From assembly GCA_951406725.2 (NCBI GenBank), contig OX597815.1:148118001-148182000 (forward strand): a stretch of 64,000 bases of DNA. The letters are read 5' to 3'. The position numbers were made by a program, and so were the translations under genes. Positions 16,421-61,701 of this stretch are shown in pieces. The notes beneath the pieces were generated by a model. That model ran no database searches. It saw only the letters and a program-made list of their open reading frames with translations, and had not been told where the DNA came from. Every line of letters starts with the position of its first letter. The stretch's first letter is position 1. The DNA is from Octopus vulgaris (lineage: Eukaryota).

Positions 16421-16508
<88 letters not shown>

Positions 16509-16514
<6 letters not shown>

Positions 16515-17461
16515 TTATAATAAAGGGTTAATTGCAACAAGTTGCTCCAACCACATACCGAAAATATTAGATATAGCAGCCAAATTGATCACTATTTCTC
16601 CTACTAATAAAAAATTAATTAATCCATAGGCTGGGATTTCGTTATTTTCTTTCTCTTTACCGTATATGGGTTACAAATTCTGTTTGTTTTTGGAGACTTT
16701 TTTTATTAGTAGGAGAAATAGTGATCTATTTGGCTGCTATTTCTAATATTTTCGGTATGTGGTTTTGAGCAACTTGTTGCAATTAACCCTATATTATAAT
16801 TAATATAATTCTTACCAAATATGGTCTTTTCCATACCGAAAAATCTACTAGGTGAAATTTATTAATGTTATTAAATTAATTATATTTCACCCTTTTTTGT
16901 ATATTGAATACTATTGCTCCCTTACAAGAAGTCTACGAAACTTCGTTTCGTTGGTAATGTTTTTGTAACTCACGTGGTAATTTTGGAGGGAGATACGAAT
17001 TCGCCTGTCTATATAGATGTAGAGATGTTAGCAGTCCGTTAGATCGTTCGATGTCGCTTGGTCGAGCCGGTGTAATGGGGAACTTTTTTTCCTAGCATAT
17101 CTAGATTTATAGGAAATATTATATTGACAAGGAAATGAACCTTCGGTTCTAATCCAGAATTGCTTCTTCTATAATTAATCCATAGGCTGAGAGTTCGTTA
17201 TTTTCTTTCTCTTTACAATATACGGCTTACAGATTTTGTTTGTTTATGGGGACGCTTTTATTAGTAGGAGAAATAGTGATCTATTTGGCAGCTATTTCTA
17301 ATATTTCCGATATGTGGTTTTGAGCAACTTGTTGCAATTAACCCTTTATTATAATTAATATAATTCTTACCAAATATGGTCTTTTCCATAACAAAAAAAC
17401 TACTAGGTGAAATTTATTAATTTTATTAAATTAATTATATTTCACCCTTTTTTGTATATTG
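16509..17461 (+). mobile_element. Penelope-derived/retrozyme-like non-coding element: 1.5 tandem 556-nt units plus a 5' inverted partial copy, in (TA)n
   Basis: Direct repeat 16616-16906 vs 17172-17461; inverted repeat 16509-16614 vs 16699-16805; HHR-like motif at 17118-17175; (TA)n on both sides. Confidence 0.75.
17118..17175 (+). ncRNA. Hammerhead-like motif (U3-A8 core; GAAA apparently deleted, probably inactive)
   Basis: Stem I attata/tataat; core TTGACAA; stem II gga..gaac-cTTCGg-ttc..tcc; stem III agaa-ttgc-ttct; UUC triplet at 17167-17169. Confidence 0.5.
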
Positions 17462-17571
17462 TATATATATATATATATATTTATATAAATAGATATATAT
17501 ATAAATATATATATAAAAATGTGTATATATATATGTATATATATATAAGTATATGTATATATATATATAAG

Positions 17572-17611
<40 letters not shown>

Positions 17612-17617
17612 TAAATA

Positions 17618-17659
<42 letters not shown>

Positions 17660-17674
17660 TATATACATATATAA

Positions 17675-17717
<43 letters not shown>

Positions 17718-17795
17718 TAAATATGTATATGTATATATATATAAGTATATGTATGTATATATATATATATATAAGTGTATATATATATATATATG

Positions 17796-17832
<37 letters not shown>

Positions 17833-17874
17833 CATATGTATATATATATATATATATAAGTATATGTATATGTA

Positions 17875-18080
17875 TACTTAATAAGGAAAACTTAACAAGA
17901 AATTGTCAGGTAGATATAAAAACCTCATATATAAAATTTCGAAAATAATTATTTCTTATTGAACATATTAATTTATATATATATATATATGCCAGAAGGC
18001 ATTATATATCAATAAGTATATGTATGTATATATATATATATAAGTATATGTATGTATATATATATATAAGTATATGTATG

Positions 18081-18116
<36 letters not shown>

Positions 18117-18152
18117 TATGTATGTATGTATATATATATATATAAGTATATG

Positions 18153-18196
<44 letters not shown>

Positions 18197-19131
18197 GCAA
18201 TTAAGGACAACTACTTAATAAGGAAAACTTAACAAGAAATTGTCAGGTAGATAGCGTAAAAACCTCATAAGAGAAAAAATTTCGAAAATAATTATTTCTT
18301 ATTGAACATATTAATTTATATATAGAGGGCATTATACATACATGCCAGAAGGCATTATATATACATGCCAAACGCTAAGAGGGACAATTAGTCATTTCTA
18401 GCACATGGGTGAGTTTACATATATTACATCCGGTCAAATGGCAAACTTTTACGAATTGCATTTCGGGAGAGGAATAGTTTTTTCGGAATAAAAATTTAGC
18501 AATTATGCAACTCGTTGATGTTGAACAGTTAGCTGATCGACTTAAGCGGGGCAGGGTCTAGTTGTTTATTTATAATGCATTCTAATTGTCCCTCTTAGCT
18601 GATTGGCATGTATATATAATGCCTATCTGGCATGTATGTATAATGCCCTCTATATATAAATTAATATGTTCAATAAGAAATAATTATTTTCGAAATTTTT
18701 TCTCTTATGAGGTTTTTACGCTATCTACCTGACAATTTCTTGTTAAGTTTTCCTTATTAAGTAGTTGTCCTTAATTGCTAAATTTTTATTCCGAAAAAAC
18801 TTTTCCTCTCCCGAAATGCAATTCGTAAAAGTTTGCCATTTGACCGGATGTAATATATGTAAACTCACCCATGTGCTTCGTTGATGTTGAACAGTTAGCT
18901 GATCGACTTAAGCGGGGCAGGGTCGTTGTTTATTTATAATGCATTCAGGCCTGCTGATGAGTACGTAAGTATGAAATCACTGTGATACAGGTCTATATTT
19001 TTTTAAATGTCTTACTTTGAAAAATTGCATTCGGTGGGATTAGTAATATTTTTGGTAGAAATGACTAATTGTCCCTCTTAGCGTTTGGCATGTATATATA
19101 ATGCCTTCTGGCATGTATGTATAATGCCCTC

Positions 19132-19140
<9 letters not shown>
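17875..19140 (+). mobile_element. Penelope-derived/retrozyme-like element: 483-nt tandem unit with HHR and scrambled inverted copies, in (TA)n
   Basis: ctaattgtccctc at 18582 and 19065 (period 483). 18193-18400 and 18401-18505 are reverse complements of unit segments. 17875-18010 is a further decayed inverted piece. Confidence 0.8.
18947..18994 (+). ncRNA. Type I hammerhead ribozyme, intact core
   Basis: Stem I aggcctg/caggtct (7 bp); CTGATGA; stem II gtac-GTAA-gtat; GAA; stem III Atcac-t-gtgaT; cleavage predicted 3' of A18987 (AUA). Confidence 0.88.
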
Positions 19141-19199
<59 letters not shown>

Positions 19200-27760: not shown

Positions 27761-28919
27761 GGAATCCGTGGAAAAGTTCTACACTAGATTAAGTATTTCC
27801 TGGCGAATAGAACACAACATGATGTAGTTGATGGAGTCCACTCAAGCCCAGCAAATGTCACCAGCGGTGTCCGCCAGGGGACTGTCTTGGGTCCGCTACT
27901 CTTCATGATTTCCATAAACGACCTTTCCAGTGCCGTACATTACTGCAATGTGAAAATATTTGCTGATGACTCTAAGCTCCAGCAAATCGTCAATGAAGAA
28001 GCAGACCGAACTGAACTCCAGTCTGATCTATATGCAGTGAGTCAATGGGCAGAGAGAAACAAAATGCAACTGAACGAGGGAAAATTTGAGCTGATGCATT
28101 TTGGAAGAAATTCCTTACTAAAACAGCCATACTCTCTTCCTTCAGGGGAACCGCTCACAGCCTCTAACAATATCAGAGACCTGGGTGTAATTGTTGATGA
28201 CGAGCTCAGTTGGAGTGCACACATCAACAAGAAGGTCGATATAGCTCGTAGGATGAGCTCCTGGATCTTAAGAACTTTCCGGTCCAGAGAATAAGGTGTC
28301 ATCATTCCTCTCCTTTGTACGGCCACACCTCGAATACTTCTGCCCACTGTGGTCTCCCCATACAAGACAAAACGTCTCGAGGATTGAATCACCCCAGACG
28401 GCACTCACTAAGCGAATTGAAGGCATGGCTGGTCTCGATTATTGGGATCGCCTTAAAGCCTTGAAATTCCACTCTCTCCAGCGTCGCCGTGAGCGGTACA
28501 TCATTTGTACGATGTGGAGAATATACCACCAACTTAGCCCAAACAACCTGAAAATTAGCTTCAATGTTCATCCAAGACTGGGAGCTCGGCCGATACGTCC
28601 CCTGCACAATTCAAGATCACAGCATAGATGTACACTGCAACATAATTTCTTTTCCTCAACAGGCCCTGCCCTATTTAACATTGTCCCGAAAGAGATAAAA
28701 GAGGAAAAGGATCTCATCAACTTTAAACGGAGTCTGGATAGATTACTTCAAGGAATACCAGATAAGCCACCCATAATCGGATACAACTCACCCAACAAAA
28801 ACACACTACTTGAATGGACCATAAACAAAACTTGACTTAAACAGGATTCAAATAATCCTATCAGGTGGTGCTATTAATTTAGACATGGCCTGGGCCAATC
28901 TTTGGTCGAAACATATCTA

Positions 28920-61607: not shown

Positions 61608-61645
61608 CTGTTACTCTGAGTTTCTCGTTGCCGTTCATCAGACAG
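61608..61645 (-). ncRNA. Minimal type I hammerhead ribozyme (minus-strand copy)
   Basis: Identical to 61664-61701 on the opposite strand. Confidence 0.7.
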
Positions 61646-61663
61646 TTTTTGCTAGAAAAAAAA

Positions 61664-61701
61664 CTGTCTGATGAACGGCAACGAGAAACTCAGAGTAACA
61701 G
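61664..61701 (+). ncRNA. Minimal type I hammerhead ribozyme
   Basis: Stem I ctgt/acag; CTGATGA; stem II a-cg-GCAA-cg-a (A.A at the base); GAA; stem III Actc-a-gagT; GUA cleavage 3' of A61697; AATAAA about 30 nt downstream. Confidence 0.72.

Follow-up and report, generated by a model that had tools for sequence, protein, structure and literature searches.

The closest described systems to the repeat family considered here are the metazoan non-LTR retrozymes and the endonuclease-positive Penelope-like elements (PLEs). In the available portions of the retrozyme reports (PMC7229834; bioRxiv 10.64898/2026.07.22.740005), non-coding tandem units of low GC content are described which carry one type I hammerhead each and occur both as dispersed copies and as arrays, all of which the octopus family shares; its unit of 559 nt is, however, longer than the 170-400 nt reported there. 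The family also differs from these retrozymes in its core, which is of the minimal U3-A8 type, and in the additional A that precedes G12. As far as the accessible parts of the sources go, it has in common with endonuclease-positive PLEs the 5′-truncated partial tandems, the inverted 5′-truncated arm, the one-ended tail and the (TA)n targets (PMC8557442, PMC3846280), as well as a minimal hammerhead with a palindromic helix III (PMC4209133). It differs from them, within the same limits, in that its unit is devoid of an ORF, its tail measures 97 nt and not 30-40 nt, and the unpaired base lies on the 3′ side of helix II, whereas in PLEs it lies on the 5′ side.

A further likeness, for the octopus family as interpreted below, is to the Poseidon PLE of the green anole, which was studied in vitro. 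According to the text available (PMC11167929), two internal reverse transcription starts downstream of its hammerhead define the tail, and both DNA strands are cut and extended at AT-rich targets. No strand difference in the start site is described there, whereas the two ends of one octopus insertion almost always use different sites. Both the route by which PLEs produce tandem and inverted insertions and the role of the hammerhead in their cycle are called open in the parts of the literature at hand (PMC8557442, PMC11167929). In main texts outside subscription journals we found no counts of start-site pairing in PLEs, nor of how many 5′ ends coincide with the cut of the hammerhead; Fig. S2 of PMC11167929 may bear on these.

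Layout of the locus and its repeat family

The window, i.e., the whole stretch of 64,000 nucleotides of Octopus vulgaris DNA that was analysed (contig OX597815.1, positions 148,118,001 to 148,182,000), contains one insertion of this family. Its parts are listed below, with unit positions numbered from +1 = 17170, the first base past the predicted cut.

16422..16509, no strand: (TA)n flank on the left, the likely insertion target; no legible target duplication
16507..16614, minus strand: inverted arm, unit +86..+194; its outer end is the proximal fixed end (+194)
16615..16616, plus strand: head-to-head junction, a single T (16615) and then unit +3, without microhomology to the inverted arm
16616..17169, plus strand: near-complete unit, +3..+559, without a long reading frame
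17118..17175, plus strand: type I minimal hammerhead-like motif, cut predicted after 17169
17170..17460, plus strand: partial second unit, +1..+291; its outer end is the distal fixed end (+291)
17250..17460, plus strand: domain kept in sister families, with predicted helices at both fixed ends; mean column identity 69%
17461..17880, no strand: (TA)n-rich flank on the right, as read from the sequence

The direct arm runs from +3 to +559 and then from +1 to +291, and both outer ends of the insertion sit within (TA)n. In the second unit the proximal fixed end falls at about 17363, which leaves 97 nt between it and the distal one. The direct repeat extends from 16616 (=17172) to about 16910/17465, with 92.5% identity over 295 nt. 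The first-pass annotation had recognized a hammerhead-bearing retroelement here, with the first repeat copy starting at 16616, an inverted copy directly upstream of it and the junction 2 nt downstream of the predicted cut. This description is borne out by the repeat itself, by the inverted arm with one T between, and by C17 at 17169, which takes its place in the family triplet; the predicted cut position was also right. The locus is an aged copy of a common, mobile non-coding repeat with a hammerhead motif.

The 559-nt unit, with one type I hammerhead and no long ORF, forms tandem arrays and is present in several hundred copies in the 2.8-Gb genome. An exact 18-mer near its 3′ end has 537 genome matches, 100 of which were read, while ribozyme-adjacent anchors gave 107-188. 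The +80..+291 domain recurs in sister families (2075 motif matches; alignment and predicted helices), where the hammerhead core at the corresponding position is of the canonical CUGANGA form. This conserved domain, 17250..17460 in the window, would likely be the site bound by the reverse transcriptase. One sister family, with a unit of 594 nt (L266-L355, e.g., L272), is young and occurs in many arrays; its core is canonical, the loop of its helix II is long, and its two fixed ends lie close to +195 and +290..+305. A single insertion at L026 (G000:C10:27049500-27051830) contains about six tandem repeats of a deleted, 266-nt unit in which the hammerhead is retained. Among the sequencing runs listed as containing the repeat, none is recorded as RNA. 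One 590-nt contig (unit + 31), from a run whose RNA origin is a guess, could represent either a circle or a multimer; contigs show neither ends nor strand.

An autonomous PLE ORF (reverse transcriptase plus GIY-YIG endonuclease) is absent from the 559-nt unit, and the search via ORFs in the fetched loci and the sister-family loci gave no autonomous partner. PLE-like endonuclease ORFs lie near four loci (L075, L087, L254 and L093) and do not match the unit; from their cysteine motif we take them to belong to a Neptune-like clade. The ORF ends at L075 and L087 have almost the same sequence, which makes theirs a young family, and at L254 a family arm lies directly against a truncated ORF. The Pfam scan, which covered 19 of the 32 window ORFs, returned one reverse transcriptase fragment, LINE-like in appearance (27788-28291; PF00078, E=5e-11), whose position is unrelated to the insertion. 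A second, unrelated insertion with inverted and tandem repeats occupies 17875-19150; its arms are 97-99% identical, a canonical-looking type I hammerhead core lies inside it at 18954-18976, and it probably represents a PLE-type element of more recent date that entered the same TA tract. Elsewhere in the window, two opposed CTGATGA...GAAA motifs at 61621-61688 possibly represent another head-to-head hammerhead pair.

Outer ends and the pairing of arms

Of the 200 insertions of the family that we mapped, 97 consist of two arms joined head to head and 102 of a single arm, with 1 complex case. Their outer ends fall exactly at +194 in 97 instances and exactly at +291 in 80, and no use is made of the unit's remaining TA-like positions for outer ends. 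Among the 96 non-duplicate pairs, 33 with a non-canonical outer end were excluded from the pairing count; the +194/+291 combination was found in 61 of the 63 pairs with two canonical ends (p=4e-16). The corresponding pairing of ends occurs in 11 of 12 cases in the 594-nt sister family. Single arms of the 559-nt family end at either fixed site (51 and 41 of 102). Fixed 3′ ends, a one-ended tail, variable 5′ ends, an inverted 5′ arm and a microsatellite target, i.e., the layout of PLE-mobilised copies, are all present.

Both arms of an insertion derive from a common source: rare variants common to the two arms amount to 5.1 per kb, versus 0.47 for subfamily-matched foreign arms (73 pairs). The arms are not nested in 34 of the 61 +194/+291 pairs, and at L051 the non-nested arms are identical in 193/193 overlap columns. 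Later gene conversion could account for the sharing between arms, and later deletions at the palindrome centre for the non-nesting. At the junctions, a short overlap (microhomology) was seen in 46 of 96 pairs.

The inversion had previously been attributed to a switch of template at the 5′ end of the RNA. This does not fit, because such a switch should leave the arms nested and their outer ends unfixed, whereas the outer end observed is the fixed +194, paired with +291, and over half of the pairs are non-nested. In L1-type twin priming, the inverted and direct arms are adjacent and non-overlapping on the RNA; this is not the arrangement seen here, as 3 of 61 pairs are adjacent within 20 nt.

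The hammerhead-like motif and 5′ ends at its predicted cut site

The motif of the window copy, on the plus strand throughout, consists of the following parts.

17118-17123 / 17170-17175, plus strand: helix I
17124-17130, plus strand: core TTGACAA (U3-A8 reading)
17131-17155, plus strand: helix II
17156, plus strand: extra A
17157-17159, plus strand: GAA (G12-A13-A14)
17160, 17161, 17163 and 17167, plus strand: four private substitutions

Family motifs have the order helix I, TTGACAA, helix II, extra A, GAAAC, palindromic GA(G/T)TC, GTC, helix I. The consensus tccGAAAagaa expected in the first-pass annotation was therefore not recovered, the family reading tcc-A-GAAAC-GA(G/T)TC-GTC instead, nor is UUC the cleavage triplet, which is GUC in 150 of 158 motifs. 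The internal motif had also been said to lack GAAA; nothing is deleted and GAA is kept at 17157-17159, but the motif is indeed damaged by the four substitutions. We took a minimal type I hammerhead to comprise a C3/U3-U-G-A-N-G8/A8-A core, GAAA, an NUH triplet and helices I and II. Core, GAAA and triplet are intact in 136 of the 158 family motifs (non-redundant set), and the window copy is not among the intact ones, as A15.1 is changed.

In this family G12 does not directly follow helix II (C11.1), an extra A being present before it in 98% of copies and likewise in two sister families. Helix III is short and palindromic (ACGA-N-TCGT), which allows a dimer fold. Both a U3-A8 core and a palindromic helix III are known from minimal hammerheads of PLEs, the U3-A8 core in schistosome PLEs, in the parts of the report that were available (PMC4209133). 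Judged from the sister cores, the U3-A8 core could also be derived from the canonical one by loss of G8, as the letters would be the same. The fold at 17118-17175 is of ordinary stability (z -0.11), and the Rfam scan gave no hammerhead family among its 43 hits at E<=1, mostly TA-repeat noise. At L049 and L053 the palindromic helix III segment is briefly duplicated within the motif; these motif-internal duplications were left out of the end counts.

The dead variant of the window has 1 exact match genome-wide and is thus private to this copy. Rare changes amount to 2-5% in the rest of the copy, and four changes within 10 nt are more clustered than such divergence predicts (p about 0.001, calculated after the fact); they may stem from one complex event.

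Read-through of the motif was scored by eye. The set consisted of the 155 listed of 188 rows, from which the window copy and one duplicate were left out, giving 153 passes anchored at +16..+37, and 118 of these run past the predicted cut site. Internal motifs are intact in most arms longer than one unit, and in one array 6 intact-looking motifs are read through in succession. A dead internal ribozyme, which had been thought to let a 1.5-mer survive, is not needed, because intact-looking motifs are routinely read through; the motif damage is private and is not required by insertion. Since read-through is routine, we infer that the template was mostly an uncut multimer or circular RNA.

Among the passes of the fetched loci, with the window copy left out, 8 of 134 end at 0..+3, about 3.5× the background of 1.7% per 4 nt, and 3 of these 8 are ambiguous in position, being joined to (TA)n with TATA at the site. 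Eight other TA-alternating runs hold 20 of 601 ends (3.3%; Fisher p=0.2 against the site). Hence the predicted pile-up at the cut stands as a modest excess over background, but not as one significantly above other TA-like runs. Counted by eye, 9 ends lie at 0..+3, 8 at +4..+10, 18 at +11..+15 and 12 at -1..-24, so that the +11..+15 cluster (18/153) exceeds that of the site. The end rate falls about 3.7-fold across the site (35 in +15..0 versus 12 in -1..-24, p=2.5e-5). This drop is also significant for ends outside (TA)n (p=0.001). The excess at the site itself is real when set against a flat background, and of the ends outside (TA)n 7 lie at the site versus 8 upstream (p=0.004). Of the later passes, 5 of 21 terminate at +18..0. 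In the 80 letters viewed per row, a qualitative clump of ends near +50 was also visible. An apparent cluster at -235 corresponds to one local 266-nt tandem and was counted once, and the duplicated loci L189 and L227 were removed from the end counts.

For replication we used the 594-nt sister family, in which the sequence following the cut lacks a TA-like character. It has 545 anchors, of which 166 rows were listed (all 66 W and 100 of 479 S). Among the 166 listed rows, no end falls on +1 or 0, and +2 is the end of 3; weighted for unlisted rows, there is no excess, with 0.0026 ends per nt at +15..0 against 0.0027 at -1..-26. The site rate is 9/127 in the 559-nt family versus about 7/520 in the sister family (p=0.001), a difference that fits either AT-rich microhomology or a more active ribozyme in the 559-nt family.

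The +86/+1 junction of the window recurs in an independent copy, L246, where the join is blunt; at +1/0, the joins of L246, L198 and L116 are all blunt or nearly so. Three arms stop at +3 (window 16615, L085 and L247), and each of them is preceded by T, which yields the palindrome TTAATTAA; either slippage or a lost A after an end at +1 would explain this T. Cleavage may have made the 5′ end in the window, as had been suggested, but the modest family excess is confounded by TA microhomology and absent in the sister family. Most likely the arm was simply truncated at +3, where the sequence is AT-rich and self-complementary. The coincidence of the 5′ end with the cut site is real at this locus and is weak evidence for cleavage; a single-copy cleavage fossil is not established.

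Possible routes of insertion

We consider it probable that the family is a non-coding 559-nt non-LTR retrozyme which is inserted by Penelope-like copying from both ends of one (TA)n break. A PLE protein would bind the conserved domain and cut both strands of the (TA)n target, after which one DNA end would prime at unit +291 and the other at +194, on the same RNA species. Both cDNAs would stop at variable points, and the truncated products would be joined head to head, often via short overlaps. For the window insertion this would mean a direct arm of about 845 nt stopping at +3 and an inverted arm of 109 nt.

It is possible, at a clearly lower probability, that insertion proceeds from two starts in this way while a minority of templates (roughly 5-20%) are linear RNAs cut by the hammerhead, the window arm having run off such an end and trimming having spread the ends over +1..+15. 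The step in end rate at the site, the 8/134 ends at 0..+3, the site rate above that of the sister family, the 5/21 later passes ending at +18..0, the blunt or near-blunt joins of L246, L198 and L116, and the conservation of the motif (136/158 intact) are all consistent with this. The window junction without microhomology and the identical +86/+1 junction of L246 also count against the two-ended copying of uncut templates. However, the sister family has no excess despite its canonical core, the larger +11..+15 cluster can be explained by TA microhomology or by a pause at the outer helix, and the position is ambiguous for 3 of the 8 ends at the site, which are joined to (TA)n. Moreover, in the available text on the anole PLE the hammerhead is dispensable in vitro and no RNA reads end at the cut (PMC11167929). 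We regard as rather unlikely the fuller proposal in which coordinated two-ended PLE insertion from two fixed starts on the same retrozyme RNA is combined with a live U3-A8 hammerhead with an extra A, which would cut a minority of templates; its scar would be the step in 5′-end density, and copies such as that of the window would record the cut.

Self-priming or fold-back has been proposed for PLE inverted repeats, in the portions available of that report (PMC3846280). Here it would entail a hairpin whose nesting was blurred by later central deletions, with fixed ends arising as (TA)n microhomology joins. Arms of common source, some palindromic junctions and the TA-like character of both fixed ends agree with it, but it does not predict the strict +194/+291 pairing (61/63; 11/12), the unit's other TA-like spots are unused, single arms end at either site, and L051 combines identical arms with non-nesting; we therefore hold it to be very improbable. 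Even less credible is the complete scenario of the first-pass annotation, in which an upstream live cut made the end, a 1.5-mer survived through its dead internal ribozyme, and a template switch gave the inversion. It accommodates the junction 2 nt from the cut, the damaged internal motif and the nesting of the window's inverted arm in its direct arm. Against it, most copies and arrays show read-through of intact motifs, the damage is private, and the inverted arm ends at the fixed +194 in strict pairing with +291, over half of the pairs being non-nested. Two of its three mechanistic steps are contradicted.

The octopus family adds another case of known element kinds, namely of non-LTR retrozymes and of the PLE layout. 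That its two starts are paired almost without exception speaks for a coordinated priming at the two ends of the DNA, and the frequent read-through for a mostly uncut or circular template. The value of the case lies in the testable contrast between two sister families.
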